Origin: Patescibacteria group bacterium
Lineage (GTDB): Bacteria > Patescibacteriota > Patescibacteriia > UBA1558 > GWA2-36-10
DNA length: 64,000 nucleotides
Assembly: GCA_041665545.1 (NCBI GenBank)
Contig: JBAYIQ010000004.1
Span: 18,132 to 82,131, forward strand
Direction: 5' to 3'
Shown here piece by piece: positions 1 through 39,976 of this stretch (the stretch's first letter is position 1; the number at the start of each line of letters is the position of its first letter). Made by a program: the position numbers and the translations under genes. Under the pieces are notes generated by a model, which was not told the origin of the DNA, searched no databases, and was given only the letters and a program-made list of their open reading frames with translations.

Positions 1-1410
1 TAAATCACCCGCCTTAAAATCTATTGGTTTAATGTCGGTCAACTTCAAATCAACTGTTTTATTTTCTACCACAATATTTTTGGTGACTTCGTTGCTTAGA
101 CCAGCCGAATCGGTGACTTTTAATTTAATTAAATAATTACCAGCTTTTTCGTAAACATGATTTTCTTTAGCTTCATCACCATTTTGATTATCGCCAAAAT
201 CCCAAAAATATTTTAACTCCCCTTCTTCAGGGTCAATGGACTCACTGCCTGAAAAAATAATTTTTGTATTAGCAAAAAATTTATCACCTTCAATTTTTAA
301 CATTGCTTGCGGTGCTTGATTTTCAGGCAAAACATTGGCCTGTCCTGGTGTGGGACTTGGCGTCCAAGCAAACGAACCATTTATCAAGGCCAGACTTTTT
401 CCCTCTGGCGCCGAAGCATCATAAATAGCGCTGTCTAATAAATTATTGTCCGGCGAATAAACTTTCACACTATCACCGCCAGTATTATTCAGTGATATTT
501 TTGTTTGATTTTTGTAGAGTACTAAGTACGAATTGCCAGCCAAAAGCAAACCCTGCCCAATAGTATATTGTCCGGCCGAATTATCCTGCACTTTGAAGCC
601 AGACAAGTCAACGGTATTTTGTCCTTGATTAAATAACTCTATCCATTCAGCGTCGTCACTACCTACTGGATTGGGCAACAACTCTGATATTTTTATCTGC
701 GACCAATAATTGCTTGGCGCTCTGGTGCCACCGCCAACTGGTGTTTCGGGAGCTGGCGACTGTGGTTCTTCATCATCAGGAGGATCATCATCGCCGCTGT
801 CATCATCTGGTGGCAAGACAGAGCCTTGGCTTTTGACTACACTCGGAGTGCCACCCAATACAAAGCTCTCTTGCCAGTTACTCACCGCGCTTTCTTGGGT
901 CAAATTTATTTTTTCTAGTGTTTTGCCATTGCCATTTGCTCCCCAAGCAGAATCATAATCAGAACTAATACCTTGACTCTGTCCACCATCAAAACTCAGG
1001 GCAACAGTGCTACTAGAATTGCCTAAGCTCATGACTGTATCAAAAACCGCTAATGCAAATCCCGGATGCTCGGTCAAAAAATTTTGCGCATCAGAGGCAA
1101 TGATAAAATATTCGCTCACGGCAATAGTGCTAGTGCCATTGACCAAATTCAAAATGTGATTTGAGCCATCAAAAAAACGCCAAGTATTAGCGCCCGACCC
1201 AGCCAAAACTTCGACGGCTTCCGAACCAGCATTATAGACCTCAATCCACTCACGACCGCTATCTGATCCGTCCAAATCGTACATGATTTCAGAAATCACC
1301 AAATCGCCACTCCCTGCTTGACTAGCTTGCGGACAAATCAAAACAAATATTAAAATAACAAGCGCCCAAAGGGCGGTCGCCCTTTGGGCGGAAATCGCTT
1401 TTCTTTTCAT
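1..1410 (-). CDS. Large secreted surface protein with two lamin-tail-like (LTD) domains and a PKD-like repeat; C-terminal part lies outside the window
   Basis: Minus-strand reading frame is open from the window start up to an ATG at about 1408-1410, so it is absent from the ORF track. The N-terminus (MKRKAISAQRATALWALVILIFVLICPQASQA) looks like a signal peptide. The motifs LVISEIMYDLDGSDSGREWIEVYN and ISELLPNPVGSDDAEWIELFNQGQNTVDLSGFKV resemble lamin-tail domains. The motif GELKYFWDFGDNQNGDE...KVTDSAGLSNE resembles a PKD repeat. Confidence 0.55.
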   Translation of the reverse strand, partial: MKRKAISAQRATALWALVILIFVLICPQASQAGSGDLVISEIMYDLDGSDSGREWIEVYNAGSEAVEVLAGSGANTWRFFDGSNHILNLVNGTSTIAVSEYFIIASDAQNFLTEHPGFALAVFDTVMSLGNSSSTVALSFDGGQSQGISSDYDSAWGANGNGKTLEKINLTQESAVSNWQESFVLGGTPSVVKSQGSVLPPDDDSGDDDPPDDEEPQSPAPETPVGGGTRAPSNYWSQIKISELLPNPVGSDDAEWIELFNQGQNTVDLSGFKVQDNSAGQYTIGQGLLLAGNSYLVLYKNQTKISLNNTGGDSVKVYSPDNNLLDSAIYDASAPEGKSLALINGSFAWTPSPTPGQANVLPENQAPQAMLKIEGDKFFANTKIIFSGSESIDPEEGELKYFWDFGDNQNGDEAKENHVYEKAGNYLIKLKVTDSAGLSNEVTKNIVVENKTVDLKLTDIKPIDFKAGDL

Positions 1411-1429
1411 ATTTAATTGTTAATTATAA

Positions 1430-2083
1430 TTATTGACTAAACTCTAAGGTCTCCAACATATCATTAAAAATTTTTCTATTTTTTTCGTTATATTCTTTTT
1501 CATAATAACTAAAAGTCATGACCTGATTGGTAATATTATTTAATAAATAAACCGTGTCCGAATAAACCCAATCTCGCTGACTACTGTCTCTATAATTTCC
1601 TTTAATCCTATAATCCTCTAGGCTTCTAAAATGATCTATCTTTGGATCTTTCAATAATGCCACGTCAGCAACAAGACCAATTGGATAATCAATATAGCTG
1701 TTGATTACTATTTTATTTTTATCTTTAAAAAAATCATCTACAACTCCGTCATTAAAACCAATTGATAATAGACTAGTAGATTCTATTTGTTCATTATATT
1801 CTCTATAATTCCAGTCACTTGGATATTGCACTCTAAAACAGCCCGCTTTATTTACATAAATTTTCCAACTAGCTATTTTGGCATTGCTTTCAAATCTACA
1901 ATTACCCACTATTACCGGTCTAAAAATAAAATTACTAGCGTCCTCTTGTTTTTTTTCATCGAGGATAATAATATTTTTATTTACTTGATCATTTTTAATT
2001 TTTACTTGCCACATCAAAAATAAATTTAAAAACAAAATTGGAAGCAAAACGATTAACAAAAAATATTTTTTCATAATATTCAT
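1430..2083 (-). CDS. Hypothetical membrane-anchored or secreted protein
   Basis: ORF track 1430..2149. The likely true start is the internal Met MNIMKKYFLLIVLLPILFLNLFLMW (hydrophobic N-terminus), because the first 22 codons of the tracked ORF overlap a terminator hairpin. I recognise no conserved motifs. Confidence 0.4.
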   Translation of the reverse strand: MNIMKKYFLLIVLLPILFLNLFLMWQVKIKNDQVNKNIIILDEKKQEDASNFIFRPVIVGNCRFESNAKIASWKIYVNKAGCFRVQYPSDWNYREYNEQIESTSLLSIGFNDGVVDDFFKDKNKIVINSYIDYPIGLVADVALLKDPKIDHFRSLEDYRIKGNYRDSSQRDWVYSDTVYLLNNITNQVMTFSYYEKEYNEKNRKIFNDMLETLEFSQ

Positions 2084-2151
2084 ATTTAATCTAAAAATTA
2101 TAACAAAGTTTTGGGGAGCATGAAAGGTTTTCCTCTCATGCTCCTCCACGC

Positions 2152-2871
2152 CTACGCGCCGTAGACCAACAAAGAACGAATGGTGCCGTACAATGCCCTA
2201 CTGCTCTGACCCCAAGGATCGCGAACCAGGTAATTCGTGCCATCATAGGCATAAATCACCAAGTAATGACTGGGGGTAGTGCCAAAACTGACCCTTGCAA
2301 CGACTGGCCTACCAGTGGCCAGCTCTTTATAGATTTGGGTGTAAGCAATGTTGCGGTACGGCCTACTCACATAGCCATACTGCAGCGCTTCTGGCAAGCG
2401 AATAAGATCTCCGCATTCAGAGGTGGAAAAGGCATAGTGAGCCCTACCCTGGTAACTCCAGTTGTTAAGCACAACCGGCGTCATCGATGAGTAGCCCCAC
2501 CTCTTGTACAGCATGGCCAGGCAGGTGAGGTGACAGCCATACTTACCGATGGTCGAATTGCCGCAAGGGTAATTGAAACCAAGGGCAACATCCTTCCATG
2601 CCGGATCCAGCTGGCTGAAGTAAGGCACGTTCAGATAGATGCAGGCATTGGCCTTGTTCGGACTGACCTGCTCGGACGCCGCTCTGCCAGCAGCATTAAC
2701 CTCATCGGCAGAAATGTTGAGTTCGATGGGATCGTCGACCCCAGTATTCGGGTCAAAACTTCCGACTATCGGAGCCGTGACCATCGGCTCCTCCCTGTCA
2801 CAGCCCGCCATCCACGACAGCAGGCCCAGCGCCAGCAGTACGCTGACCAACAAACTCACTCGGCTCTTCAT
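2152..2871 (-). CDS. High-GC lipoprotein with a peptidase C39-like (papain-like cysteine peptidase) domain
   Basis: ORF track 2152..2904; the probable start is MKSRVSLL, with a GGAAGGA Shine-Dalgarno about 7 nt upstream. The signal peptide ends in LSWMAGC, a lipobox-like Cys. YFSQLDPAWKD...CGNSTIGKYGCHLTCLAMLY resembles the Peptidase_C39_2 (YvpB/BtrH-like) catalytic region. Local GC is about 50-60% against a roughly 37% background. Confidence 0.5.
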   Translation of the reverse strand: MKSRVSLLVSVLLALGLLSWMAGCDREEPMVTAPIVGSFDPNTGVDDPIELNISADEVNAAGRAASEQVSPNKANACIYLNVPYFSQLDPAWKDVALGFNYPCGNSTIGKYGCHLTCLAMLYKRWGYSSMTPVVLNNWSYQGRAHYAFSTSECGDLIRLPEALQYGYVSRPYRNIAYTQIYKELATGRPVVARVSFGTTPSHYLVIYAYDGTNYLVRDPWGQSSRALYGTIRSLLVYGA

Positions 2872-3104
2872 GACAAGTCCTTCCATGAAAAAGTCCAAGA
2901 ACAAACACGCGACTTGCTTTGAGGGTAATCCGCAAATAAACCTCCTTGGTTGTAAAGAACAAGTGCTCGTTCTTTTGCCCTCACAAAAGATTGAGCCAGC
3001 TAAAAATTTTCGCTTTTCTTAGCTTGGACAAGGCCCGAAAGATACAGGCAAACTTTTTAGGCCTTGCTCCAAGATAAAAAAATATCTTAAAAAATTATGA
3101 TAAA

Positions 3105-3518
3105 TTAATTATCTTCTTCAATTTGAATTTCCTCGATGTCAATTTCTTCCTCTTTGGCGTTTTCATCCCCTTTAGATTCCTTTTTTTGACTACCACCGAG
3201 CATGATCAAGTCAGAGGCCACAATCTCGGTCATATATTTTTTGACCTTATTCTTATCTTCCCAAGATCTGTTCTGCAAACGACCCTCGATAAAAACTTTG
3301 GAGCCCTTTTTCAAATAGACGGTGATGATTTCGGCCAAATGCCCCCAAGCCACCACCCGATGAAACTCAGCTCGATTCTTTTTTTCCTTGGTCTTGGCAT
3401 CGCGCCACACATAATTGGTAGCCAAAGTCATAGTGGCCACGGCTTGCCCGCTGGGCAAATTTTTACTGATCGGGTCTTTGGTAATGTTGCCGATCATACT
3501 AACCTTGTTTAGGTCCAT
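3105..3518 (-). CDS. ssb: Single-stranded DNA-binding protein
   Basis: OB-fold SSB signatures are present: MDLNKVSMIGNITKDP, EFHRVVAWG, KGSKVFIEGRLQNRSWEDKNKVKKYMTEIVA. The acidic C-terminal tail is EEIDIEEIQIEEDN. Confidence 0.9.
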   Translation of the reverse strand: MDLNKVSMIGNITKDPISKNLPSGQAVATMTLATNYVWRDAKTKEKKNRAEFHRVVAWGHLAEIITVYLKKGSKVFIEGRLQNRSWEDKNKVKKYMTEIVASDLIMLGGSQKKESKGDENAKEEEIDIEEIQIEEDN

Positions 3519-3582
3519 ATCGCTTTTCCTTTCTTTGTCTGCCGTTTTTCGACAGAATAATTATTAAGGCCAAACCAAAAAC

Positions 3583-3612
3583 CCCTATTTAACCCATGCC
3601 AAAATAGGGGTA
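3583..3612 (-). terminator. Rho-independent terminator-like hairpin, minus-strand orientation
   Basis: CCCCTATTT-12 nt loop-AAATAGGGG is a 9 bp stem. On the minus strand it is followed by TTTTTGGTTTGG. It lies just upstream of the ssb start, i.e. downstream of the rnhB transcription unit. Confidence 0.4.
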
Positions 3613-3919
3613 GTTGGATTGACAAAAATGATTATTTATTTTAGAATTCAAATTGAGGTTAACCATTCCTTCAGGGGATATGGCAATCTCAAAATCGCTT
3701 TTCTTAACAAAGTCCCGCCCATAAAGCGGGGTTTTGTTTTTTATGTAAAATAAATAATCGTAAAAAATGTTATTAATCCAAGTGGATTTAGCAGAAAAAT
3801 TTGTTTTATTGTTAAAAATATAAAACATCGCTTTTCTTTACCTTGTTTATAGCCGTCTATAAAAACAATGACGGCTTACCATGCCGTCATATTATCACCC
3901 GTTATTTTATTGTCAAGAC

Positions 3920-6737: not shown

Positions 6738-7061
6738 TTATAATTGTTTATTAATTTTTTCTAACAAAACTTTTTTGGACTGCATACCCACCATATCCTC
6801 TACTACCTTTCCACCTTTAAAAATCTTTAAGGCCGGGATAGACATTATTTCAAACTCTTGGGACTTAAGTGGGTTTTCCTCAACATTAAATTTAGCAATT
6901 TTTATATTGCTTTTGTCTTTCAGCTCTTCGGCTAGCTGGTCAATGATTGGTCCTTGCATTTTGCAAGGCATACACCAAGAGGCCCAAAAATCCACCAAGG
7001 CCACTCCCTCAAAATTTTTTATTTCTTGATCAAAGTTTTGATCGTTTAATTCTAATGCCAT
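6738..7061 (-). CDS. trxA: Thioredoxin
   Basis: A 107 aa protein with active site WASWCMPCK, a variant of WCGPCK. It lies immediately upstream of trxB on the same strand. Confidence 0.85.
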   Translation of the reverse strand: MALELNDQNFDQEIKNFEGVALVDFWASWCMPCKMQGPIIDQLAEELKDKSNIKIAKFNVEENPLKSQEFEIMSIPALKIFKGGKVVEDMVGMQSKKVLLEKINKQL

Positions 7062-7078
7062 AAATTTGTTATTAATTA

Positions 7079-7342
7079 TTAACTAGTTTTAAATAATATT
7101 TCTATTAATTTATTTAATTCTTTTTTCTTATTTTTAGTTCCCGACTGATAACAGCCATTCACCTTGTCAGTAATTAGCAAACGAGTGACCGAGTCCAGTG
7201 AAGCGCGCGCAGCCATCACCACTCGCACCACTTCTTCCACTTCTCTTTTTTCGCCGTACATTTTTTCAATCGCGCGAATCTGACCCTCAATGCGATGAAG
7301 TTGAGAATAGATTTTTTGTGGATGACAGGATTGTTTGCTCAT
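7079..7342 (-). CDS. CsoR/RcnR/FrmR-family (DUF156) metal- or thiol-sensing transcriptional repressor, atypical ligand set
   Basis: QLHRIEGQIRAIEKM...ASL matches the CsoR-family helix alpha1/alpha2. The positions of the canonical Cu ligands (first Cys and His of the C-H-C set) are replaced (REVEEVV ... KVNGC). Only one Cys is retained, plus an N-terminal Cys-His (SCHP). Confidence 0.6.
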   Translation of the reverse strand: MSKQSCHPQKIYSQLHRIEGQIRAIEKMYGEKREVEEVVRVVMAARASLDSVTRLLITDKVNGCYQSGTKNKKKELNKLIEILFKTS

Positions 7343-7351
7343 ATACCCTCT

Positions 7352-7375
7352 GGGGGTATTATATCAAACCAGTAA
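7352..7375. promoter_or_regulatory. Putative CsoR-type operator overlapping the csoR-like start
   Basis: ATATACCCTCTGGGGGTATTATAT is a pseudo-palindrome ATACCC-N5-GGGTAT with a G-tract. It resembles, from memory, described CsoR operators of the TACCC...GGGGTA type. Confidence 0.35.
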
Positions 7376-7713
7376 AAACACGTCAAGTGTGGTGGTGGAA
7401 AATCACTAACCCCTCCAACCTCCCCTTAACAGGGGAGGAACATTTAAGCCCCCCTTGTCTCGCCCACAGGGCGATCACCCTCTGGGTGAAAAGGGGGTTC
7501 CTGCCTGCCGGTAGGCAGGAAGCAATCTACAAGCTTGTGGATTGCCACGCCCCGTCGCGTCAGACGCGACGGGGCTCGCAATGACGAACCGAAAAACTAA
7601 CTTCGGATCAACAAACTTCTCGACTCCCCCTCGACCTGGCTCGGGGTCGCTCGGGATTTCGCGAGACAAACAGGAGGATACTTTTTGTTTGAAGTCATTG
7701 TTAATATTTCAGT

Positions 7714-7780
7714 GTCATTCCTGCGAAGGCAGGAATCTAGCCAGATCCCGCAACAAGTGCGGCAAGTGCGGGATAACAAC
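7714..7780. mobile_element. MITE-like palindromic element, family A, compact copy
   Basis: TGTCATTCCTGCGAAGGCAGGAATCTA ... CAGATCCCGCAACAAGTGCGGCAAGTGCGGGATAACA. Each arm is itself a hairpin. It is homologous to the copy at 9385-9468 (TGTCATTCCCGCGAAAGCGGGAATCTA ... TAGATCCTGGATCAAGTCCGGGATGACA), with terminal inverted repeats TGTCAT/ATGACA. Confidence 0.5.
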
Positions 7781-7864
7781 ATGGTTGGGGGGTTTGTTTT
7801 AAATCCTCCTTGTCAAACGGCCCTGCCCGAGCTTGCTCGAAGAAATAGACCCTTGTGCGATATT

Positions 7865-7893
7865 TGACAATAATCTTAATAGGTGATATAATA
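7865..7893 (+). promoter_or_regulatory. Exact consensus sigma70 promoter (TTGACA-17-TATAAT) for the 7923 gene
   Basis: TTGACAATAATCTTAATAGGTGATATAAT sits about 30 nt upstream of a GGGAGG Shine-Dalgarno and the ATG. Confidence 0.6.
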
Positions 7894-7922
7894 TAGTGTT
7901 TCCATAACCGGGAGGTTCTTTC

Positions 7923-8183
7923 ATGGCAGACCGTAAGGGTCCTTCGGCTGTAAGCTCGGTCTTCATCTGGCTGGCGTATTTGTCGGCAATTGCCGGCGAA
8001 TCCCTTCTTCTCTGCAAGACTTGGTGGGAGTTTGCGGCGCTTGTGGGCATTGGCGTCGCTGTTTTCTTCCTCGTCGCGTTCTTCATTGGCCTATTTAGCA
8101 TCAAGCGCCACGGCGCCGTCCATGTCCTGCTGATAGCAGTACTCGTGCTTTCGGCAATGACTCACCTGGCCATCTTCGCGTGA
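7923..8183 (+). CDS. Small high-GC membrane protein (two predicted TM helices), unknown function
   Basis: An 86 aa ORF with its own consensus promoter, Shine-Dalgarno and terminator. It has two hydrophobic segments (VSSVFIWLAYLSAIAG, VGIGVAVFFLVAFFIGLF...VLLIAVLVLSAM). GC is well above the flanking DNA. Confidence 0.5.
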   Translation: MADRKGPSAVSSVFIWLAYLSAIAGESLLLCKTWWEFAALVGIGVAVFFLVAFFIGLFSIKRHGAVHVLLIAVLVLSAMTHLAIFA

Positions 8184-8211
8184 CAACACATCACCCAGAA
8201 TGGAGAATCGG

Positions 8212-8257
8212 CCCCGTAAGTGTACGCAACGCTACGGGGTCTTAATTTTGTTTAATT
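8212..8257 (+). terminator. Rho-independent terminator of the 7923 gene
   Basis: CCCCGTAAGTGTACGCAACGCTACGGGG hairpin followed by TCTTAATTTTGTTTAATTT. Confidence 0.6.
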
Positions 8258-8274
8258 TATCATGAGTTAGCTAA

Positions 8275-8385
8275 CCCAGTTAGAAATTTACCTTAGTTGG
8301 CATATGAGATAAACTTATATAAGCAACTAAGTGACAATTTTACTAATAATACGGCATAAAATATTCAAAATAATTTCTAACTGGG
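8275..8385. repeat. Inverted-repeat element of the CCCGTTAGAAATT family (copy E1)
   Basis: CCCAGTTAGAAATT at 8275-8288 and its reverse complement AATTTCTAACTGGG at 8372-8385 flank a 83 bp AT-rich interior. The arms match copies E2-E5 at 34666-34745, 46548-46626, 47786-47889 and 47896-48044. Confidence 0.5.
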
Positions 8386-8439
8386 CTAATATTAGCCAAA
8401 AGTATTGCTTCTGTAAAGAAATGGCAGTAAATATAGGGA

Positions 8440-8468
8440 TTGACAAAATTTGATAAAGGGTGTATAAT
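8440..8468 (+). promoter_or_regulatory. Exact consensus sigma70 promoter with extended -10 (TTGACA-17-TGTATAAT) for the 8652 gene
   Basis: TTGACAAAATTTGATAAAGGGTGTATAAT. It is followed by a leader of about 180 nt containing the palindromes TATCTATTATATAGATAG and CTTTACATGGTGTAAAG, then the Shine-Dalgarno AAAAGGAGAG and the ATG. Confidence 0.6.
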
Positions 8469-8651
8469 TTTATGTTACTTTAAGTACCTTAATATTTACT
8501 TGCAAACAGCCATAATAGCCCCAGCGTTTAGATTATCTATTATATAGATAGTTTAACCGCTGCGGCTATTCGATAGTCGCTTCTACTGGTGTGCCTTGTG
8601 TCTTTACATGGTGTAAAGATAAGAGGTGTACCGAAAAAAGGAGAGAAAACC

Positions 8652-9242
8652 ATGGCTCGTCAGAAGAGTGAGTTCGTGAGTGCCCTGGGCACGGCCTTCG
8701 AGATGATCAAGCTGATCGCCGAGGAGGTCTACTTCCTGGGTGGTAACGACAACAACATGCGGACGATCCTCAAGGATCGCAAGCTGCGTCAGCAGATCGC
8801 CAAGTTGTTGGTCGCCAACACCGGTGATGTCTGCGCGTTGGACATCTTCGGCAAGAGCATCGATGAGCTGGTAAGGCAGGGTAACTACGACTGGGCCAAC
8901 AACAGCATCAACGACCACAACTTCAAGGCGGACGAGATGCACCAGACCGAAGTCTTTCTCAAGCACTTCGGCCAGAACATGAGTATGGAGGCCGTGCTCA
9001 ATGCTCTGGATGCCGACGGCCTGCGTCCGGCGACCATGTCCGAGCTGCTCGGGTTCGGCATTCGCTATCCCGAACTGCAGCGGCAGTTCCCCATCGTGGC
9101 CCTCGGCTCTGTCTTGCAGTTTACCGGTGGTGGACGTCGTGCCGGTTGCCTCTACGGCAGTGCTGACGAGCGCAGGCTCGGTCTGAACTGGGTCGACGGT
9201 GACTTGAGCGGTGCCTATCGCGTCGCTGCTGTTCGCAAGTAA
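8652..9242 (+). CDS. High-GC hypothetical cytoplasmic protein (197 aa), unknown function
   Basis: ORF track 8589..9242; the start is set at MARQKSEF, directly after a strong Shine-Dalgarno. There is no TM segment and I recognise no motifs. The clearly elevated GC gives the codon usage of a high-GC organism. Confidence 0.5.
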   Translation: MARQKSEFVSALGTAFEMIKLIAEEVYFLGGNDNNMRTILKDRKLRQQIAKLLVANTGDVCALDIFGKSIDELVRQGNYDWANNSINDHNFKADEMHQTEVFLKHFGQNMSMEAVLNALDADGLRPATMSELLGFGIRYPELQRQFPIVALGSVLQFTGGGRRAGCLYGSADERRLGLNWVDGDLSGAYRVAAVRK

Positions 9243-9313
9243 CTGGCACTTGGCCACTTGTGTCCTCGGGACTTGATTGTCCCTTTGACACTTGGCCTCG
9301 GCCAAATCGCAAG

Positions 9314-9359
9314 ACTCCGCTTTAATCGCTTCAGTGTGATGGGCGGAGTTTTCTTTTTT
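9314..9359 (+). terminator. Rho-independent terminator of the 8652 gene
   Basis: ACTCCGC...GCGGAGT hairpin followed by TTTCTTTTTT. Confidence 0.55.
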
Positions 9360-9384
9360 AAATAAAAAAACGCCAACCCCATAC

Positions 9385-9468
9385 TGTCATTCCCGCGAAA
9401 GCGGGAATCTACTATTATTATACCAATGGCAAATCAATGGTAGATCCTGGATCAAGTCCGGGATGACA
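9385..9468. mobile_element. MITE-like palindromic element, family A, full copy
   Basis: An 84 bp element with terminal inverted repeats TGTCATTCCCGCGAAAGCGGGAATCTAC / GTAGATCCTGGATCAAGTCCGGGATGACA. Each arm is a GC-rich hairpin. A second copy lies at 7714-7780. Confidence 0.5.
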
Positions 9469-9528
9469 ATGAAAAACGGCGAATTAAAAGTCTAGTATTC
9501 TTGCGAGAAACCAAAACCCCGCACCAAC

Positions 9529-9603
9529 TGGTCCCCTCACCAGGAATCGAACCTGGATCTAGAGCTTAGGAGTCTCTTGTTCTATCCATTGAACTATGAG
9601 AGG
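9529..9603 (-). tRNA. tRNA-Arg (anticodon CCU)
   Basis: A manual cloverleaf fits. The acceptor stem is CCTCTCA/TGAGGGG, followed by T8 A9. The D-stem is GTTC/GAAC. The anticodon loop CTCCTAA gives anticodon CCT. The T-arm is CCAGG-TTCGATT-CCTGG, and the discriminator A and CCA are encoded. The plus strand shows the diagnostic GGAATCGAACC. Confidence 0.8.
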
Positions 9604-9722
9604 GTCAAGTGGTGCGGGGCAAACTCCAATCCAATCTACAAAGCACACGAGTGCCCTGTTTATTAAAAATAAGGGCTAGTTGTTTGTCCCTAATATTAGC
9701 TAATAGTTTGAGTCGTAATATA

Positions 9723-9851
9723 TTACTGAAGCATTTTGGTCAAAAACTGAGTACGGCTCTCAATCATATAAACTACCAAATAAATTACTAGGATTGCTCC
9801 AACAATAATTCCCAACCTTTTTAGTTCTGCTTTAATATTTTTGTCAGTCAT
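9723..9851 (-). CDS. Possible small single-TM protein (42 aa)
   Basis: ATG...TAA ORF MTDKNIKAELKRLGIIVGAILVIYLVVYMIESRTQFLTKMLQ on the minus strand, not in the track because it is under 60 aa. It has a hydrophobic core and no obvious Shine-Dalgarno. Confidence 0.2.
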   Translation of the reverse strand: MTDKNIKAELKRLGIIVGAILVIYLVVYMIESRTQFLTKMLQ

Positions 9852-9985
9852 AATAGTGTTTATTAATTAATGCCGTGTAATTTTAGTATATACGGCTGTT
9901 TTTGTCCATGGTTTTTTGTATTTCTTTGACAATTTTGGCTCCTTAAACTAAAATTAAGGTCGTTAATTTATAATAAAAAAATAAT

Positions 9986-10429
9986 ATGTTTGGTAAAAAA
10001 GAAGCAGTAGTAAGCACAAAAAATATTGAAACAATAATCGGCCCCTCGGTAAAAGTAGAGGGTAATTTTGCGGGTGAAGGAGATTTGGTCATTGAAGGTA
10101 TGCTGGTTGGCACCCTAAACACCAAAAATAACCTCAAAATCGGCTCTAGTGCCGTAGTAGAGGCCACTGTCCGGGCCAATAACGCCTTTATTGCTGGCCG
10201 AGTCAAGGGCAATATCACTATCAAAGGGCGACTAGAAATCACTAGCTCAGCCGTAATTGTCGGCGACATCAAGGCCGCGGTTCTGTCCATAGAGAGTGGC
10301 GCCTTGATTCAGGGCAATGTGGCTATGCCTTTCGGCGAAGCAAAACACGAGGAACACCGCCCTAATCCCAAAAAAGAAGTGAAGCGAGCTGAAAATGAGT
10401 TGCCCGAAGAAAAACCTTTGGAGTCATAA
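9986..10429 (+). CDS. Bactofilin (polymer-forming cytoskeletal protein)
   Basis: Repetitive beta-helical bactofilin (DUF583) core GNFAGEGDLVIEGMLVGTLNTKNNLKIGSSAVVEATVRANNAFIAGRVKGNITIKGRLEITSSAVIVGDI, with a charged C-terminal tail. Confidence 0.7.
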   Translation: MFGKKEAVVSTKNIETIIGPSVKVEGNFAGEGDLVIEGMLVGTLNTKNNLKIGSSAVVEATVRANNAFIAGRVKGNITIKGRLEITSSAVIVGDIKAAVLSIESGALIQGNVAMPFGEAKHEEHRPNPKKEVKRAENELPEEKPLES

Positions 10430-10437
10430 ATTTTGTT

Positions 10438-11184
10438 ATGTATCTTTACATATACGATTCATTTTTGAGTGACAAAAAATATTCTGACCTCTTAGCCCAA
10501 ATTGAAAAACGCGTTACTGACTTGGGCATCAAGGGAAGAATTGCGCGTCTTTCGATTCTAAAAAATATGAAGGAGTTGATCACCGACGGAATCAAGTCTG
10601 GTGTTCAGACTGTGGTGGTCATTGGCAATGTTCAAACTTTTGCCAAAGTTATTAATATTGTGGCTGGCTTGGAAGTGGTGCTTGGTTTGATACCAGTGGA
10701 GAACGACAACAAGATTGCTAAGATGCTGGGCATACCACCAAAACTTTTGGCCTGCGATGTTATTGCTTCGCGCATTATAAAAAAAATTGACCTCGGTCTA
10801 ATCAATGGTCATTTTTTTGTGGGGCAAGCAGAAATTAATGATGCCAATGTTTTGATTGAGTATGACGGCTACAATGTGCGACCAACTACGGCTAATAATA
10901 ATATTACTATTTATAATTTTGCCGAGCGTTGTATAATACCAAATTCAACACCAGTTGATGGCGTGCTGGAGGTAGTGATCACACCAATGAAGTCTGGCGT
11001 CTTTGGTAAAAAAAATATTACTGGCACTATTTTACCTTTTTCCAAAATTAAAATAAGCACCGAGGGCGAGGAGCAGGTCTCCATCTTGACTGACGAACAG
11101 GTGATCATGAAGACGCCGGCTGAGATAAGTGTGGCGCCCCAAAAACTCCGAGTGATAGTGGGTCCAGAAAGATGTTTTGAATAA
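10438..11184 (+). CDS. Diacylglycerol-kinase catalytic-domain (DAGK_cat/YegS-like) family protein, divergent
   Basis: N-terminal fold pattern ...GVQTVVVIGNVQTFAKVINIVAG... resembles the DAGK_cat GGDGT region, with the motif degenerate. Confidence 0.4.
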   Translation: MYLYIYDSFLSDKKYSDLLAQIEKRVTDLGIKGRIARLSILKNMKELITDGIKSGVQTVVVIGNVQTFAKVINIVAGLEVVLGLIPVENDNKIAKMLGIPPKLLACDVIASRIIKKIDLGLINGHFFVGQAEINDANVLIEYDGYNVRPTTANNNITIYNFAERCIIPNSTPVDGVLEVVITPMKSGVFGKKNITGTILPFSKIKISTEGEEQVSILTDEQVIMKTPAEISVAPQKLRVIVGPERCFE

Positions 11185-11211
11185 AACCTAGTTTAGATAA
11201 CTAGTTTAGAT

Positions 11212-11251
11212 GTGCAAAAAAACCGCCTAAATTGAGGCGGTCTTTTTTTTG
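11212..11251. terminator. Bidirectional rho-independent terminator between convergent genes
   Basis: A-run, hairpin ACCGCC-TAAATTG-AGGCGGT, then TCTTTTTTTTG. It serves the plus-strand gene ending at 11184 and minus-strand yidC, whose stop lies within the stem. Confidence 0.7.
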
Positions 11252-11922
11252 AAACCCAGCACCATATATTGCTGGAGTATTGAGAAAAGTGTAGTAAATA
11301 GCCAATAAAGCGTCAAGCCAGCCGGCAAATTGCCACCGATGACGATCGTAAAAATCGGCATAAAATAAATCATCTGATTGGTCATTATTTTGGACATGCC
11401 GGTTTGTTGTGATTTGCCCATCAACATCTTGGACTGCCAAAATTGAGCCACTCCGGCTAATATAGCAATGATCCAATTCTTGCTAGCCAAATTAATAAAG
11501 CCAAAAGCAATTATGTTTAGTTGGCCGGGATTTTGAACAAAAGAATACAAGGCGCCATTGCTGTTGTCTTTGGTCAAGCCGTTTAAAAAAACTTGGTACA
11601 GGGCAATCAAAAATGGTAATTGTATTAAGGTTGGCAAACAAGAAGAAAAGGGATTTATTTTTCTTTCTTTGTAGAGGGCCATAAGCTCAGGCGCCATCTT
11701 TTCTTTGTCATCTTTGTATTTTTCTTTGATCTTTTCTATTTCCGGTTGAATGGTTTGCAATTCTTTTTGCGACTTGATGGCTTTTTGAGAAAAGGGATAT
11801 AAGGCCAATCTAATAACCAAAGTGATTAGAATGATGGCCACGCCCAAATCCTTACCAGGAACCAGGTTGTACAAAAAAATCAGTAAGTTGTAAATTGGTT
11901 GATAAAAAATTGTGTAAAACAT
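11227..11922 (-). CDS. yidC: Membrane protein insertase YidC (short form)
   Basis: AIILITLVIRLALYPFSQKAIKSQKELQTIQPEIEKIKEKYKDDKEKMAPELMALYKERKINPFSSCLPTLIQLPFLIALY matches the YidC/Oxa1 conserved core. Genomic context is rpmH-rnpA-yidD-yidC. Confidence 0.85.
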   Translation of the reverse strand: MFYTIFYQPIYNLLIFLYNLVPGKDLGVAIILITLVIRLALYPFSQKAIKSQKELQTIQPEIEKIKEKYKDDKEKMAPELMALYKERKINPFSSCLPTLIQLPFLIALYQVFLNGLTKDNSNGALYSFVQNPGQLNIIAFGFINLASKNWIIAILAGVAQFWQSKMLMGKSQQTGMSKIMTNQMIYFMPIFTIVIGGNLPAGLTLYWLFTTLFSILQQYMVLGFKKKTASI

Positions 11923-11925
11923 ATT

Positions 11926-12201
11926 TTATTTGATTGGATCAATTCCGCCCTTTGACCAGGGGTTACAGCGCGCTATGCGCCAAAGCGATAAATAAATTCC
12001 TTTTATGGTTCCGTGTTTTTCAAACGCCTGTCGACTATATTCCGAACAATGCGGATGAAAGCGACAAAAACCATGGGGGAAAAATATTTTTAAGTATCCT
12101 TGGTCTGGCGAAAATATTTTTTGATAAATTTTAATTAAAAAAATAAATATACTAGCCAACAAGTGGTCGATTATCTTTATTGCTCTTAACATTGCTTTCA
12201 A
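11926..12201 (-). CDS. yidD: Membrane protein insertion efficiency factor YidD
   Basis: A 91 aa protein with FCRFHPHCSEYSRQAFEKHG...RCNPWSKGGIDP (YidD signature). It overlaps the rnpA 3' end. Confidence 0.8.
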   Translation of the reverse strand: MKAMLRAIKIIDHLLASIFIFLIKIYQKIFSPDQGYLKIFFPHGFCRFHPHCSEYSRQAFEKHGTIKGIYLSLWRIARCNPWSKGGIDPIK

Positions 12202-12538
12202 TATACAGGCGAGTTGTTTTTAAAGCAAATTGGAATTGCTTCTGCAAATCTGGCAGAGTAAGCCCAACACAGCTTTTTTTGGCTATAAACAAAATGTCTA
12301 CTCCGACTTTAATTTTGCTTAGTTCTGGTCTAATGGCCTCCCGCATACGACGCTTGGTCTTGTTTCTAACAACGGCCCGCTTATCCACCTTAGTAGAAAC
12401 AACAAAGCCCAGACGTAGCAAATTTTGGTTATTATATTGATATTTGAGGGTTAATTGGGGTAAAAAAAAAGTTTTGCCCCCACGGACCAAGTTTTTGATA
12501 TCCTTATCTGCGTGTAGCCTAAATTTTTTAGGCAACAT
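12152..12538 (-). CDS. rnpA: Ribonuclease P protein component
   Basis: KRAVVRNKTKRRMREAI matches the RnpA RNR motif. It is positioned between rpmH and yidD. Confidence 0.85.
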   Translation of the reverse strand: MLPKKFRLHADKDIKNLVRGGKTFFLPQLTLKYQYNNQNLLRLGFVVSTKVDKRAVVRNKTKRRMREAIRPELSKIKVGVDILFIAKKSCVGLTLPDLQKQFQFALKTTRLYIESNVKSNKDNRPLVG

Positions 12539-12541
12539 AAT

Positions 12542-12682
12542 TTAGAGACTTATTTTCTTTCGGCCCCTGGCTTTTCGTCTTTTCAAGACTTTTCGACCAT
12601 CTTTGGTGGCCATGCGCTTCATAAAGCCGTGCTTTCTGGCTCTTTTTCTTTTTTTTGGTTGGTATGTCCTTTTTGTTGCCAT
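12542..12682 (-). CDS. rpmH: 50S ribosomal protein L34
   Basis: A 46 aa ORF missed by the 60 aa track cutoff: [46 protein letters not shown], near-consensus L34. It is immediately upstream of rnpA. Confidence 0.85.
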
Positions 12683-12841
12683 ATAAAATTAAATTACCTA
12701 AATAAAATAACATATTTACTTAATTTAATCAAGGGGAGTCACCAACTTGATTATACCCACATTTTATTAACAATTTATGCACTCTCGGTCTTATTTGAGC
12801 ATTTAAAAATATGTGGTATATTTACTGCAGTTTGTAAAAAC

Positions 12842-14212
12842 ATGGATAATTACGAAAAAATTTGGCAAAGTGTCCTGGGTCAACTGGAGTTATTGATCAG
12901 TAGGGCTAATTTTACCACCTGGTTCAAAAATACCTTTTTGGCCGAGTTTGATAACCAGCAAGTTGTGGTTGGGGTACCCAATTCCTTTACCAAGGTTTGG
13001 TTAGAAAAGAAGTATCACGATCACATTACTAAGGCCCTGGAAGACACCTTATCAAAAAGTAATCTACAAGTTATCTACAGGGTGGAAAATAGGGAAAGTT
13101 TAGCTAATATTAGCAAAAATGTTGAGATTGTTGACAAGCCAAGCGAGGAGCTTGTGCACAACCAAAGCCCACAGCCAAAGGCAAGTAATAAGTATGGTTT
13201 AAACCAAAATTATACCTTTAATTCCTTTGTTGTTGGCCCAGGCAATGAGCTGGCCCAGGCAGCAGCTATGGCCGCAGCCCAAAAACCCGGCGAAATGTAT
13301 AACCCTTTGTTTATATACGGGGGTGTGGGTTTGGGCAAAACCCATCTAGCCCAGGCCGTTGGTAACTATATTTTGGCTAAAAATCCACAAAAAAAGGTCC
13401 TTTATATCAATAGCGAAAAATTCACTAATGACTTTATTTTTGCTATAAAAAGGGGCCAAACAGATGAATTTAAGAACATTTATCGCAATGTGGATGTCTT
13501 ATTGATAGATGATATTCAGTTTATTGCTGGAAAAGAGCAGACCCAAGAGGAGTTTTTTCACACCTTCAACGCTCTACACCAAAATAACAAGCAAATTGTG
13601 CTTTCTTCTGATCGACCACCCAAAGCGCTGGGTGGGGTGGAAAATCGTTTGATTTCCCGTTTTGAGTGGGGCATGATTGCTGATATTTCTTTTCCTGACT
13701 TAGAAACCAGGGTGGCTATTTTGGAAATAAAATGCCAACAAAAAAATTATCATTTAGAAAAAGCCCTAGTACAACTGGTGGCCGAAAGTATTCAAGAAAA
13801 TATCCGCGAGCTAGAAGGAGCACTAAACAGGATTATTGCTTTTCATCAACTGAACAATACGCGACCTTCTTTGGAAAGTGTGCGCTCACTTTTGGGTGGC
13901 ATTTCCGCCAATCCAAAAAAAGCCGGACTAACTACTAAAAAATTATTAAAAACTGTTATTGAATTTTTTGATATTAGTATGGATGAGTTGCTTGGTGCCA
14001 GTCGCAAAAAAGAATTGGTCATGCCGCGACAAATTGCCATGTACTTGATGCGCGAACAACTAAAATCATCCTTCCCAAACATTGGACACGAAATTGGTAG
14101 TCGCGATCACACCACAGCCATGCATGCTTGTGTGAAAATATCTGAATTAGTAGCGACTGATGAACGCGTAAAAAATGATATTGCTGTACTCAAACAAAAG
14201 CTCTATGAATAA
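12842..14212 (+). CDS. dnaA: Chromosomal replication initiator protein DnaA
   Basis: ORF track 12629..14212; the start is set at MDNYEKIWQ, because the upstream part overlaps rpmH. AAA+ Walker A GVGLGKTHLAQA, sensor motifs, and a C-terminal DNA-binding domain (IAMYLMREQLKSSFPNIGHEIGSRDHTTAMHACVKI). Confidence 0.9.
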   Translation: MDNYEKIWQSVLGQLELLISRANFTTWFKNTFLAEFDNQQVVVGVPNSFTKVWLEKKYHDHITKALEDTLSKSNLQVIYRVENRESLANISKNVEIVDKPSEELVHNQSPQPKASNKYGLNQNYTFNSFVVGPGNELAQAAAMAAAQKPGEMYNPLFIYGGVGLGKTHLAQAVGNYILAKNPQKKVLYINSEKFTNDFIFAIKRGQTDEFKNIYRNVDVLLIDDIQFIAGKEQTQEEFFHTFNALHQNNKQIVLSSDRPPKALGGVENRLISRFEWGMIADISFPDLETRVAILEIKCQQKNYHLEKALVQLVAESIQENIRELEGALNRIIAFHQLNNTRPSLESVRSLLGGISANPKKAGLTTKKLLKTVIEFFDISMDELLGASRKKELVMPRQIAMYLMREQLKSSFPNIGHEIGSRDHTTAMHACVKISELVATDERVKNDIAVLKQKLYE

Positions 14213-14445
14213 ACTGTTGACTAGTTGGTGGGCGCTTGTGTAAATCTCCTGGAAAATAATTTTTTTTAAAAGACAAGATTAAAATCGCGACTTTCTGCAC
14301 AGAGTTATCAGGTGGTCGTGCACAAGACAAATAGATAAATAAACACAAAATCACTGAACAAATACTTTATACAGCTCAAACTTATCAACATATGCACCGC
14401 GCCTACTACGGCTATATAATATATATATAAATTAATAATAAGTAT

Positions 14446-15552
14446 ATGAAAATTATTTGCACGCAAGAAAATTTAAATTACGGATTGGGATTAGTTTCAC
14501 ATATCGCCAATAAAAACAGTAATTTGCCCATATTAAACAATGTTTTGATTAAAGCGGAGAAAGAGGGCATTACTCTAATAACCACTGATCTAGAAATCGG
14601 CGTAAAGGTTTTTGTGCGTAGCAAAGTAGAGGAGGAAGGCGCCTTTACCGTGGATGCTAAACTGTTAAATAGTTTTATTAATTTATTACCAAAAGAAAAC
14701 ATTACCCTGACCTTGGGCGAGGATAATAGTTTGGAAGTGAAAAGTAAAAATCAAGACACGGCCATTCGCGGCATGGAAGCCGAAGACTTTCCACTCATAC
14801 CAGAAATTTCTAAAGACAATGAAATTGAAGTGTCGTCTTTGGATCTCAAAAAAAGCTTGAGCCAAGTAATATTTGCCGCTTCACTGGACAACACTAGAAT
14901 AGAAATAAACGCGGTCAATTTTAATTTCAAGGGAGAGCAATTAACCTTGGCCGCCACTGATAGTTATCGTCTAGCCGAAAAGAAAATAAAAATTGCCAAC
15001 CAAAGTAAAGAAAGCAATTTAATAATCCCCCTAAAAACCCTACAAGAATTATTGCGCATTTTAAATGAAAATTCTGAAAAAAATCTAAAAATATATTTTA
15101 ACGAAAATCAAATAATGTTTTCACTGGATGGTGTGGAGCTAGTCTCCAGAGTAATTGACGGCAACTATCCAGACTACAAGCAAATTATTCCCGACAAATT
15201 TAATACCAACATCAAGTGCGATGCTGATAAATTATTGCCAGCCATCAAAGCAGTTTCTCTTTTTTGTAAGCAGGGGATTAACGACATTAGGGTAAGCTTC
15301 GACAACGCTACCAATGAAATTGTTATTACCACCGCCTCATCGCACGCTGGAAAAAGTCTGGCCAAGGTGCCAGCCGAAATAAGCGGAGAAAACAACGACA
15401 TTGTTTTCAATTATCGTTATATTATAGACGGATTAAACAATATTGATCAAAAAGAGGTGTTTATTAATATAAACAACAACACTTCGCCGGGATTGATAGG
15501 GCCAGTGGGCCATGACGACTATATTTACCTGGTTATGCCGATTAGACAATAG
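14446..15552 (+). CDS. dnaN: DNA polymerase III beta subunit (sliding clamp)
   Basis: N-terminal MKIICTQENLNYGLGLVSHIANKNSNLPILNNVLIKAEKEGITLITTDLEIG is the typical DnaN domain I. It follows dnaA. Confidence 0.85.
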   Translation: MKIICTQENLNYGLGLVSHIANKNSNLPILNNVLIKAEKEGITLITTDLEIGVKVFVRSKVEEEGAFTVDAKLLNSFINLLPKENITLTLGEDNSLEVKSKNQDTAIRGMEAEDFPLIPEISKDNEIEVSSLDLKKSLSQVIFAASLDNTRIEINAVNFNFKGEQLTLAATDSYRLAEKKIKIANQSKESNLIIPLKTLQELLRILNENSEKNLKIYFNENQIMFSLDGVELVSRVIDGNYPDYKQIIPDKFNTNIKCDADKLLPAIKAVSLFCKQGINDIRVSFDNATNEIVITTASSHAGKSLAKVPAEISGENNDIVFNYRYIIDGLNNIDQKEVFININNNTSPGLIGPVGHDDYIYLVMPIRQ

Positions 15553-15721
15553 CTTGTGGAAATGTTTTTTGGCAAATTATTATAAATTTGCTATAATATA
15601 TTGACACTCGAAAATACCTGCGTCGAACAGGGATTTGTCGGGCGCTATAGAGATATGTAATTTCAGAAATGAAGCAAGAAACATCCGTGCGCGATCTAGG
15701 GTGTTTTTTGTTTTATATAAA

Positions 15722-15756
15722 TGAAACCCGCCCACAGAACCGTAGTTCTGGGGCGG
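15722..15756 (-). terminator. Rho-independent terminator of the 15778..16248 gene
   Basis: ACCCGCCCACAGAAC-CGTA-GTTCTGGGGCGGGT hairpin. On the minus strand it is followed by TTTCATTTATATAAAACAAAA (T-rich). Confidence 0.55.
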
Positions 15757-15777
15757 GTGAGGGGTGGAAGTGGGGTC

Positions 15778-16248
15778 CTACTTCTTGGGCTTGATCTTGG
15801 CCAGGCTGGCGGTCTTGAAGCGCCCGAAGGCGCGCTTGACCTGGCGCTTGTAGTCCAGGCCATAGTGGACGGCCAACCACTGTCCCTGAAGCGCGAGCAC
15901 TTCGGGGTCGAGATGGAATTTCTTCCAATCCCTGAGAAGGTGGGCGGTCATGGCCGGCTTGATCCGAGTCACGCGGCGTCGGTTCTTGCTAGCGTCAGGC
16001 TTGACGCGGGCCAGCCGTTTGCGCAGCTTGCCCTGCCTGGAATGCAAGCCGCGAACCTCTTGTCGCAGACGAGAGCGCTGGGCGGATTGACGTCTGTTGG
16101 CCAACTCCAGGCGCGAGATCCTGGCCTGAGACGCTGCCAAACCGGCGGCCAGGTCTTTGAGCGCTTTGTCCACACGGCGCTCGAAGCGGGTCTGTGCTGC
16201 TGCTGTTGAGCGACGCAACGCTGGTAAGGATTGTTTTCGACGGGTCAC
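15778..16248 (-). CDS. High-GC basic coiled-coil-like hypothetical protein (156 aa), GTG start
   Basis: A strong Shine-Dalgarno (AAGGAGGA) lies 7 nt upstream of the GTG, with its own terminator and its own TTGACA-17-TATAAA promoter. GC is about 60%. The protein is very basic (RRKQSLPALRRS...RRQSAQRSRLRQEVRGLHSRQGKLRKRLARVKP). Confidence 0.5.
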   Translation of the reverse strand: MTRRKQSLPALRRSTAAAQTRFERRVDKALKDLAAGLAASQARISRLELANRRQSAQRSRLRQEVRGLHSRQGKLRKRLARVKPDASKNRRRVTRIKPAMTAHLLRDWKKFHLDPEVLALQGQWLAVHYGLDYKRQVKRAFGRFKTASLAKIKPKK

Positions 16249-16301
16249 GTAAGGTCCTCCTTGTGTTTGGGCGGAACAGCGGCTGAATTGCCGAACACTA
16301 T

Positions 16302-16330
16302 TTTATACACCATAATCACATTTTTGTCAA
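16302..16330 (-). promoter_or_regulatory. Near-consensus sigma70 promoter (TTGACA-17-TATAAA) for the 15778..16248 gene
   Basis: Minus-strand reading TTGACAAAAATGTGATTATGGTGTATAAA. Confidence 0.5.
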
Positions 16331-16372
16331 CAGTAAATTGCCCAGATATTTTAAATTTGTTATTATAAGGGC

Positions 16373-39169: not shown

Positions 39170-39215
39170 AATAAAGCGGCTCCAGTCCATTGCGACTAGA
39201 GCCGTTTTTTCGATG
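39170..39215. terminator. Bidirectional terminator between pilin paralog 4 (+) and the 39230 lipoprotein (-)
   Basis: CGGCTCCAGTCCATTGCGACTAGAGCCG hairpin with an A/T-run on the upstream side and GTTTTTTCG on the downstream side. Confidence 0.5.
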
Positions 39216-39229
39216 AGGTGTGTGTTTTT

Positions 39230-39913: not shown

Positions 39914-39976
39914 ATAGCACCTCACTTGTTGAATGTTCTTTTTTTAGGCCCAAAATAGGGCTTTTACTAACACTAT

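Follow-up and report, generated by a model that had tools for sequence, protein, structure and literature searches.

A predicted surface-anchored papain-fold cysteine peptidase with exchangeable GC-rich heads in a variable slot behind ssb of Patescibacteria

Introduction

What holds a GC-rich gene at one fixed place in AT-rich genomes, and what might its product do there? The question is raised by a 64,000-nt stretch of DNA (hereafter the window) from a Patescibacteria group bacterium (GenBank assembly GCA_041665545.1, contig JBAYIQ010000004.1, positions 18,132 to 82,131), in which a predicted 239-residue lipoprotein resembling C39_2-type cysteine peptidases is encoded on the reverse strand behind ssb. 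The original prediction, made from the letters alone, described this gene as a single-gene islet of high GC; we confirm the observation, and its interpretation is supported in every part that could be tested. We propose, with moderate confidence, that it encodes a surface-anchored, extracytoplasmic cysteine peptidase of the papain fold, that recombination swaps it within a hypervariable slot behind ssb, and that its GC-rich catalytic parts (heads) come from a pool independent of the host. To call the gene a foreign islet is only half the story, because its family holds the post-ssb slot across deeply diverged relatives and is GC-rich there.

An episymbiotic lifestyle is typical of Patescibacteria. 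How these ultra-small bacteria of the Candidate Phyla Radiation (CPR) recognize, attach to and exploit their hosts is largely unknown, and few of them have been cultivated. A strain-variable, tethered peptidase with exchangeable heads at a fixed locus makes a tangible candidate for what sets specificity at the host interface. Allele frequencies and host co-occurrence allow the locus to be followed in metagenomes, and the protein can be expressed in vitro.

Results

Peptidase gene and product

The gene is made up of the following elements.

2152 to 2871, reverse strand: coding sequence of the 239-aa lipoprotein, a C39_2-like cysteine peptidase; GC 0.54, GC at third codon positions (GC3) 0.65
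2878 to 2884, reverse strand: Shine-Dalgarno-like GGAAGGA, 6 nt 5' of the ATG; an equivalent GGAGGA is conserved in relatives
2770 to 2871, reverse strand: N-module, codons 1 to 34, with the predicted signal peptide, the lipobox (Cys24 at 2800 to 2802) and DREEPMVTAP; it tracks lineage
2212 to 2634, reverse strand: predicted papain-fold catalytic domain, residues 80 to 220 (Pfam limits)
2611 to 2613, 2533 to 2535, 2266 to 2268 and 2218 to 2220, reverse strand: codons of the catalytic residues Gln87, Cys113, His202 and Asp218
2115 to 2144, reverse strand: GC-rich 3' hairpin with a 13-bp stem (one G-U pair) and a 4-nt loop, 8 nt after the stop codon; it travels with the head

The product opens MKSRVSLLVSVLLALGLLSWMAGC... 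and its start, the ATG at 2871 (MKSRV...), is conserved among relatives. The gene's own Shine-Dalgarno and the lipobox-like signal, both named in the original prediction, are present: a basic n-region (MKSR) and a hydrophobic core precede the lipobox W-M-A-G-C24, the cysteine of which is kept in nearly all homologues. The predicted C39_2-like character was also confirmed, as residues 80 to 220 match PF13529 (Peptidase_C39_2) over profile positions 1-143 of 143 at E=4.4e-15, with 56.9 bits against a cut-off of 24.

In the alignment of homologues, Gln87, Cys113 and His202 are invariant in 33 of 33 sequences, and all of the 12 closest homologues and at least 90% of the full set retain Asp218. The AlphaFold model built on the 33-sequence alignment has a papain fold, with a predicted local distance difference test score (pLDDT) of 86 and a predicted TM score (pTM) of 0.77; a 12-sequence alignment gave a pLDDT of 43. 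From these profile and model matches the predicted product is a papain-fold thiol hydrolase; the matches establish its fold class and do not fix its substrate. Motif and model together show a putatively secreted, lipobox-bearing papain-fold enzyme, and the gene is a new member of an already known enzyme family. A peptidase-profile search of 1.84 billion representatives recovered 2432 relatives, and since only 28 clusters lie at E<=1e-30, the subfamily is small. Its named members are annotated as 'C39 family peptidase' (NCBI) of Patescibacteria, Parcubacteria and Kerfeldbacteria, nearly all of them with a lipobox, and the subfamily has an additional conserved helix (ISADEVNAAGR) ahead of the C39_2 domain.

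Head exchange on a common N-module

The locus was compared across about 25 related Patescibacteria loci. An SSB-protein search of species-representative genomes gave about 20 Patescibacteria loci with a shared backbone of trxB, gdh, rnhB, ssb and the gene of an LTD/PKD surface protein, and by gene content and relatives the window falls within the Patescibacteria, near metagenome-assembled genomes (MAGs) labelled Komeilibacteria or Parcubacteria.

The N-module is 97-100% identical in loci L004, L005 and L006 despite different heads. The window and L004 carry head A, the C39_2 type described above; L006 carries head B, another C39_2 type that is about 33% identical; and L005 carries head C, with invariant Cys93, His157 and Glu173/Asn175. 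For head C no significant Pfam match, no NCBIfam match and no solved structure was found by sequence, and one of its four members gave a weak CHAP match (E=0.0055). As aligned with hhalign, head-A and head-C proteins are homologous over residues 1-55 only. At the nucleotide level, the homology of the window with L005 (head C) and with L006 (head B) ends exactly at 2769, after codon 34 (...VTAP).

L004 and L006 are 96.2% identical in the upstream flank and 99.3% in the downstream flank. Between these flanks, L004 (3152/3848) has head A with its hairpin, and L006 (4786/5947) has head B with a hairpin and a 162-aa gene. The swap is repeated in a second lineage, in which L013 carries head C and L016 and L029 carry head A on a shared N-module. 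The identities of the heads (0.64-0.86 for A, 0.60-0.69 for C) do not follow flank identity (0.48-0.90 for the LTD protein), whereas that of the N-module does. Between the window and L004, head A itself is a mosaic in which 60-nt intervals range from 33% to 100% identity. The peptidase protein also evolves faster than its neighbours: in the comparison with L004 its dN/dS ratio is about 0.20, against ratios of 0.01-0.09 in ssb, rnhB, gdh and the LTD gene. The window holds one copy of the N-module in its 64 kb. A DNA-pattern scan for the N-module in JGI metagenome contigs found no matches; a protein-profile scan of JGI metagenome contigs returned 5 loci.

A hairpin downstream of the gene had been predicted and is present at 2115-2144, with the stem and loop listed above in place of the geometry first described. 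Folding of the enclosing 76 nt (2085-2160) yields -31.4 kcal/mol (z=-5.7 relative to shuffles). The hairpin was not listed by the terminator scan, and because no U-run follows directly, it does not have the textbook form of an intrinsic terminator. At the equivalent place other heads have different hairpins, likewise GC-rich, and the 3' breakpoint between L004 and L006 falls just past the hairpin.

These alignments show that recombination replaces the catalytic head and that the arms can be defined. The exchanged unit, bounded by codon 34 on one side and by the far end of the 3' hairpin on the other, is smaller than the gene, and the locus is a clean natural case of intragenic cassette replacement with defined breakpoints. 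We suggest that heads would be replaced through homologous recombination, with the N-module and leader acting as the 5' arm, the downstream accessory or LTD genes as the 3' arm, and the GC-rich head with its own 3' hairpin as the exchanged piece.

The slot behind ssb

The surroundings of the gene contain the following features.

3105 to 3518, reverse strand: ssb (PF00436, E=1e-34), upstream of the peptidase gene
3023 to 3073, reverse strand: terminator-like hairpin of ssb, resident backbone and not island; a homologous hairpin follows ssb in the empty locus L011 and in all occupied loci
3010 to 3020, reverse strand: 11-nt direct repeat AAGAAAAGCGA, left copy, where island and leader begin
1430 to 2083, reverse strand: AT-rich accessory gene (GC 0.28), absent from empty sites; the protein is weakly PsbP_2-like, with a membrane anchor at the N-terminus and a hypervariable N-terminal half
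1395 to 1405, reverse strand: right copy of AAGAAAAGCGA, inside codons 2-6 of the LTD/PKD gene (ATG at 1408-1410)

The island is either present or absent. In ten relatives, among them the closest, L011 (SSB 99% identical), ssb is directly followed by the LTD/PKD gene, leaving an empty site; the slot is occupied in the window and in 12 other distinct loci (L007 and L012 are duplicates of L006 and L005). In the window the island covers about 1.6 kb, roughly 3020 to 1406, from the ssb terminator hairpin to the LTD start codon, and homology to L011 resumes at 1422. In occupied slots a conserved leader precedes the GC-rich lipoprotein gene and its hairpin, and between one and three AT-rich genes, which encode proteins anchored at the N-terminus, complete the island. 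The islet of the original prediction therefore keeps its place between the AT-rich gene and ssb, both of which are confirmed, and loses its single-gene extent: an empty site lacks more than the gene alone, and what is exchanged is less than the gene. The distant homologues L067 and L070 likewise lie directly after ssb, so the association is old.

The accessory proteins, compared in L004-L029, are themselves hypervariable and form three families, of about 340 aa, of about 166 aa and PsbP_2-like, the order and content of which are shuffled between genomes. The identity of the window's accessory gene to that of L004 drops to 0.33-0.60 over 2029-1732, and its homologues in L004 and L006 match PF18933 at E=1.4e-4, below the cut-off.

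A copy of the left repeat is present in most occupied loci and is degenerate in L013, L029 and L028; empty sites have kept only the LTD-start copy at the junction. Excision from repeat to repeat would delete the LTD start codon, and on this reading of the sequence the empty sites are not simple repeat-mediated deletions. The repeat has four copies in the 64 kb, all on the reverse strand (1395-1405, 3010-3020, 3695-3705 and 3828-3838; 0.12 expected). One precedes a 79-aa open reading frame (ORF), one is in the ssb leader, one opens the island leader and one falls within LTD codons 2-6; the motif is conserved at these positions in distant relatives. It might be a scar left by recombination, an operator, or an element that initiation regions share.

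No integrase, transposase, attC element or tRNA target was found at this site among the genes called within 10 kb. A phage or plasmid origin was rejected, as tblastn against phage and plasmid collections returned distant C39 proteins only (26-33% identity). IMG/VR scans gave weak partial matches for head A, none for head C and no close viral-contig relatives, and searches with PHROGs and PADLOC found nothing meaningful.

Within the first 16 codons of the LTD/PKD gene, 1363-1390 on the reverse strand form a perfect GC-rich hairpin of 12 bp with a 4-nt loop (CGCCCAAAGGGCGACCGCCCTTTGGGCG). It is identical at 28 of 28 positions in L004, L005 and L006, where the surrounding DNA is 86-88% identical.

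Composition of the gene and of its family

The GC islet predicted at about 2090-3104 was borne out by computation. All 300-nt segments across 2101-3050 have a GC of at least 0.50, with a peak of 0.573, against a window mean of 0.397 (standard deviation 0.062). The tetranucleotide distance of 2126-2875 reaches z=3.7, the second most deviant value in the window after 8501-9250. GC at the three codon positions of the peptidase gene is 0.51/0.45/0.65, compared with a GC3 of 0.36-0.46 in the ordinary genes of the window, about 0.38-0.42 being typical; the neighbouring AT-rich gene and ssb have a GC of 0.28 and 0.43. Since GC at second positions is raised (0.45 versus about 0.32), amino-acid content contributes to the deviation; the synonymous excess is larger. 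An assembly chimera was ruled out by finding the same sequence in three records (the NCBI MAG GCA_041662385.1, contig JBAZSO010000004.1; ENA; Logan), and an assembly artefact is further countered by the GC-rich orthologues that more than 12 other MAGs or contigs carry at this site.

The family member is GC-richer than the host DNA in all of the low-GC contexts examined, at least 12 in number. Its excess over the context ranges from +0.03 to +0.17 (gene/context, for example, 0.53/0.42, 0.58/0.41, 0.53/0.36, 0.55/0.38, 0.48/0.37 and 0.45/0.38). In two contigs of 59% and 64% GC the family member equals its context, at 0.62; the genome of one of these contigs may itself be that of a GC-rich member of the Patescibacteria. 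The enolase of the GC-rich relative L065 had mixed best named matches, with 57-58% identity to Parcubacteria/Uhrbacteria and 55-57% to other phyla. On the Kerfeldbacteria contig JACQHF010000007.1 (L063, 1-12780), GC is about 0.35 over 1-3900 and 0.5-0.6 beyond; this step lies inside a histidine-kinase gene region, with the C39_2 homologue on its GC-rich side.

Synonymous sites of the flanks are saturated between the window and L021, and both peptidase copies have a GC3 of about 0.62-0.64 versus 0.27-0.41 in their neighbours. This persistence of GC3 beside saturated flanks is not what a single old transfer followed by simple neutral amelioration would give. Either a GC-rich allele pool may have supplied the gene repeatedly, or the excess may arise in the resident genome, for example through selection on codons or mRNA or through biased gene conversion at a recombination hot spot. 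Only one copy is fully ameliorated. This homologue, at 6588-7307 of L024 and in the same slot of a 34%-GC relative, has a GC3 of 0.26, the level of its genome, and has Gly where other copies have the catalytic Cys113; it may be decaying or non-catalytic. That the ameliorated copy has lost the putative nucleophile is suggestive, as a single case.

Leader RNA

Between the ssb hairpin and the peptidase gene lies a conserved leader, aligned from 12-13 loci.

2914 to 3022, reverse strand: structured 5' leader, conserved in all occupied loci across deep divergence; like the N-module, it tracks the lineage of the host genome
3000 to 3022, reverse strand: leader hairpin P0
2965 to 2997, reverse strand: leader hairpin P1, with loop UGAGGGC
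2938 to 2949, reverse strand: Shine-Dalgarno-like AAGGAGG of the leader
2917 to 2928, reverse strand: CCCUC box, complementary to the P1 loop

P1 has 11 pairs, is 96.6% paired compared with 53-71% in slid controls, and shows compensatory changes at 5 pairs; its covariation score was reached by 0 of 500 shuffles. No Rfam family matches the leader. Strong matches of its covariance model (R1) were confined to occupied loci; weak echoes occurred ahead of ssb. The loop sequence UGAGGG is complementary to a downstream CCCUCA, and the pair becomes UUGGG/CCCAA and UGGGC/GCCCA in two other lineages. A two-column register shift is needed in two of the three sequence groups, and the loop-tail pseudoknot is therefore only suggestive. 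P1 and the U-rich run that follows could form an attenuator. An upstream ORF behind the AAGGAGG motif, about 65 nt upstream of the start, was ruled out, as the downstream frame is not conserved and the motif lies within the conserved RNA region.

Discussion

We favour a reading in which this CPR bacterium makes a membrane-tethered lipoprotein with a C39_2-type head and a Gln-Cys-His-Asp active site. In relatives the slot is either empty or holds one common module for export and anchoring (leader RNA, signal peptide, lipobox and a short linker) joined to differing papain-type heads. High GC would then be the mark of a head pool with a composition independent of the host genome; its reservoir is probably GC-richer genomes, possibly GC-rich Patescibacteria, and if GC marks such a pool the gene would not be a one-off recent import. 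The enzyme may cut peptide bonds of surface proteins or of a cell wall, more likely the wall of a host or partner cell than the bacterium's own, and PeiR is among its fold matches, which we count as support for the cell-wall idea. Head diversity might be kept by diversifying selection at the strain level, tied to the episymbiotic lifestyle. Exchange of its catalytic half between related strains makes the gene a candidate strain-specific factor of the cell surface or of host contact rather than a housekeeping gene.

Several points weigh against this proposal. Tethering at the cell surface is inferred from the N-terminal motif, and lipidation is likewise assumed from the lipobox. Action on the cell wall or a host surface is probable and the substrate unproven; the structural matches of the model are generic papain-like proteins of 13-24% identity, including proteases and toxins with non-wall substrates. 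The uncertain taxonomy of the GC-rich relatives is a further such point. The synonymous divergence (dS) of the peptidase is close to that of the flanks (0.65 versus 0.45-0.79 against L004; 1.2-1.3 versus 1.4-3 against L016 and L029), so much of the gene's history could be vertical descent, and in that event a persistent GC3 of about 0.6 needs another cause, either codon or mRNA selection or biased gene conversion. Finally, the adjacent AT-rich accessory genes are equally variable yet not GC-rich, and their hypervariability argues against a purely recombination-driven rise in GC.

A stronger form of the proposal, which we consider unlikely, would make the post-ssb site an idiomorph-like locus of an episymbiotic CPR lineage. 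The two C39_2 types and the CHAP-like head would be trans-lineage alleles under frequency-dependent selection that set which host wall is attached to or breached; their GC would come from continual re-import out of a GC-rich pool, or from biased gene conversion where recombination is frequent, and expression would be gated by the undescribed leader RNA through P1 and the GAGGG/CCCUC pair.

Stand-alone C39-like peptidases of PF13529, such as the putative enzyme of Bacillus anthracis in PDB 3erv, share with the window protein the profile match, the Gln/Cys/His/Asp set and a secreted, stand-alone architecture. The window protein differs in belonging to a narrow lipoprotein subfamily with an extra helix and a swappable slot, and no member of this subfamily has a known substrate. 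The pseudomurein endoisopeptidases PeiR and PeiW and CHAP-type wall hydrolases resemble head C in its Cys/His/Glu-Asn invariants and its one weak CHAP match; identity is only 19%, and no wall-binding repeats are present here. Closer in organization are the lipobox-anchored effectors of Amoebophilus asiaticus with APD1/APD2 N-domains, which are predicted to stay anchored on the symbiont surface (PMC3482391). They too belong to a symbiont with a reduced genome and combine signal peptide, lipobox and a conserved N-terminus with polymorphic C-terminal effector domains. Amoebophilus, however, holds many paralogues in parallel in one genome, whereas here each genome has one slot with alternative alleles between genomes, and the two N-modules are not homologous by name. 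New in the present locus is that GC-rich heads are exchanged like alleles, inside the gene, on a lipoprotein stalk that tracks lineage, behind a structured leader and at a fixed post-ssb slot; the underlying principle of polymorphic effectors is known, and the locus overturns nothing in current understanding.

An alternative is that the locus encodes a polymorphic toxin with its immunity, that is, an antibacterial or anti-host lipoprotein with a swapped C-terminal toxin domain and downstream small membrane proteins as cognate immunity. The constant N-terminus, the polymorphic C-terminus and the sharp breakpoints fit this, and papain-like C39 toxin domains (Tox-PLC39) are catalogued in polymorphic toxin systems (Zhang et al. 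2012, PMC3482391), which likewise join a constant N-terminal trafficking part to recombined C-terminal catalytic domains and have small adjacent genes. Head C is followed by the ~340-aa accessory protein in four of four loci, and head B arrives with its 162-aa gene. Head A, in contrast, is followed by the PsbP_2-like protein in three loci and by the ~340-aa protein in four; for all heads the sampled loci are few and phylogenetically non-independent. Since an accessory family may follow more than one kind of head, no strict pairing of toxin with immunity is seen, and the adjacent genes do not strictly co-vary with the heads as in known systems. None of the compared loci has further GC-rich head fragments or delivery domains, and orphan cassettes downstream, RHS or filamentous repeats and a releasing peptidase are absent; the N-terminal part consists only of signal peptide, lipobox and short linker, and a lipobox would imply tethering, not release. 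Defence and immunity libraries gave no match. Because cognate immunity pairing, orphan cassettes and delivery modules were not found, we describe the locus as working like a polymorphic-toxin system without filing it as a member, and we regard this alternative as unlikely.

The enzyme could also be an ordinary autolysin that remodels the cell's own peptidoglycan in growth and division, its GC anomaly and variability being incidental. Papain-fold domains of the C39_2, CHAP and NlpC/P60 types are common wall hydrolases, the weak CHAP match of head C points the same way, anchoring on the outer face of the membrane is compatible with such a role, and the family is widespread in Patescibacteria. 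A housekeeping wall enzyme, on the other hand, is hard to reconcile with a gene that is missing from the closest relative and nine others, in which unrelated heads substitute in near-identical strains, which has the raised dN/dS given above and of which one lineage retains a copy without the nucleophile Cys. We hold this role to be improbable.

We find it quite doubtful that the gene is a one-off recent acquisition from a GC-rich donor, now ameliorating, with no ongoing exchange and no special biology. Genomic islands and frequent horizontal transfer are documented in Patescibacteria, with exchange mostly among Patescibacteria (PMC12455944), and the window island shares with those islands a deviant composition and presence or absence between genomes. 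It differs from them in being tiny (~1.6 kb), lacking an integrase or tRNA, being a mosaic of GC-rich and AT-rich parts and undergoing replacement inside a gene. The gene is a strong compositional outlier, its homologues match their context in the contigs of 59-64% GC, and the spread of the GC excess is as graded amelioration predicts. Against a single recent event, the family adjoins ssb where flanks have a dS above 2, with a GC3 of about 0.6 on both sides of the split; three unrelated heads occupy one slot and all are GC-rich; and replacement is observed at the strain level. How long and why a gene family stays compositionally foreign inside AT-rich genomes is a question on which this locus bears.

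A classical C39 peptidase that processes bacteriocins or double-glycine leaders is very unlikely. Fold similarity to the PCAT1 and ComA peptidase domains and a weak PF03412 match (15.1 bits, under the cut-off of 22) speak for it; against it, the product is a stand-alone 239-aa lipoprotein rather than an N-terminal domain of an ABC transporter, and it has no transporter, ABC exporter or small precursor gene within 10 kb. Sub-threshold score and missing transporter place the domain with the stand-alone C39_2 type.

Other GC-rich stretches of the window

The original prediction counted the gene among five similar GC-anomalous cassettes. Other GC-rich stretches do exist, and the window has six of at least 575 nt with a GC of at least 0.50 (2101-3050, 7276-8300, 8551-9450, 15601-16375, 39176-40000 and 57676-58350). 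Their similarity is one of composition only: the ORF products of the other five are unrelated to the peptidase and to each other, and none gave a convincing Pfam, NCBIfam, PHROG or PADLOC match.

7923 to 8183, forward strand: gene for a small hydrophobic protein of 86 aa, GC3 0.67
8652 to 9242, forward strand: gene of 196 codons in a second cassette slot, GC3 0.79
9529 to 9603, reverse strand: tRNA-Arg(CCT), adjoining the second slot
15601 to 16375: GC-rich stretch with long ORFs on both strands at 15.7-16.2 kb
39230 to 39925, reverse strand: ORF that begins with a lipoprotein-like signal (…LPLCGC)
57739 to 58128, forward strand: ORF without a known family

In the second slot, L005 has an unrelated 187-aa gene with a GC3 of 0.81, and in L011 the slot measures only about 166 nt; no family match was obtained for either protein. 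The gene at 7923-8183 is equally GC-rich and conserved in L005, with matching DNA in L011, and it diverges faster than its flanks (75-79% versus 83-91% nucleotide identity). The last three stretches have a GC of 0.54-0.63, and their ORFs belong to no known family; at 15.7-16.2 kb, GC3 favours the minus strand. The region from 7000 to 15600 is that of the replication origin, with rnpA and yidC at 11.2-12.5 kb, dnaA at 12629-14212 and dnaN at 14446-15552, and the cumulative GC skew switches from falling to rising at about 7-10 kb.

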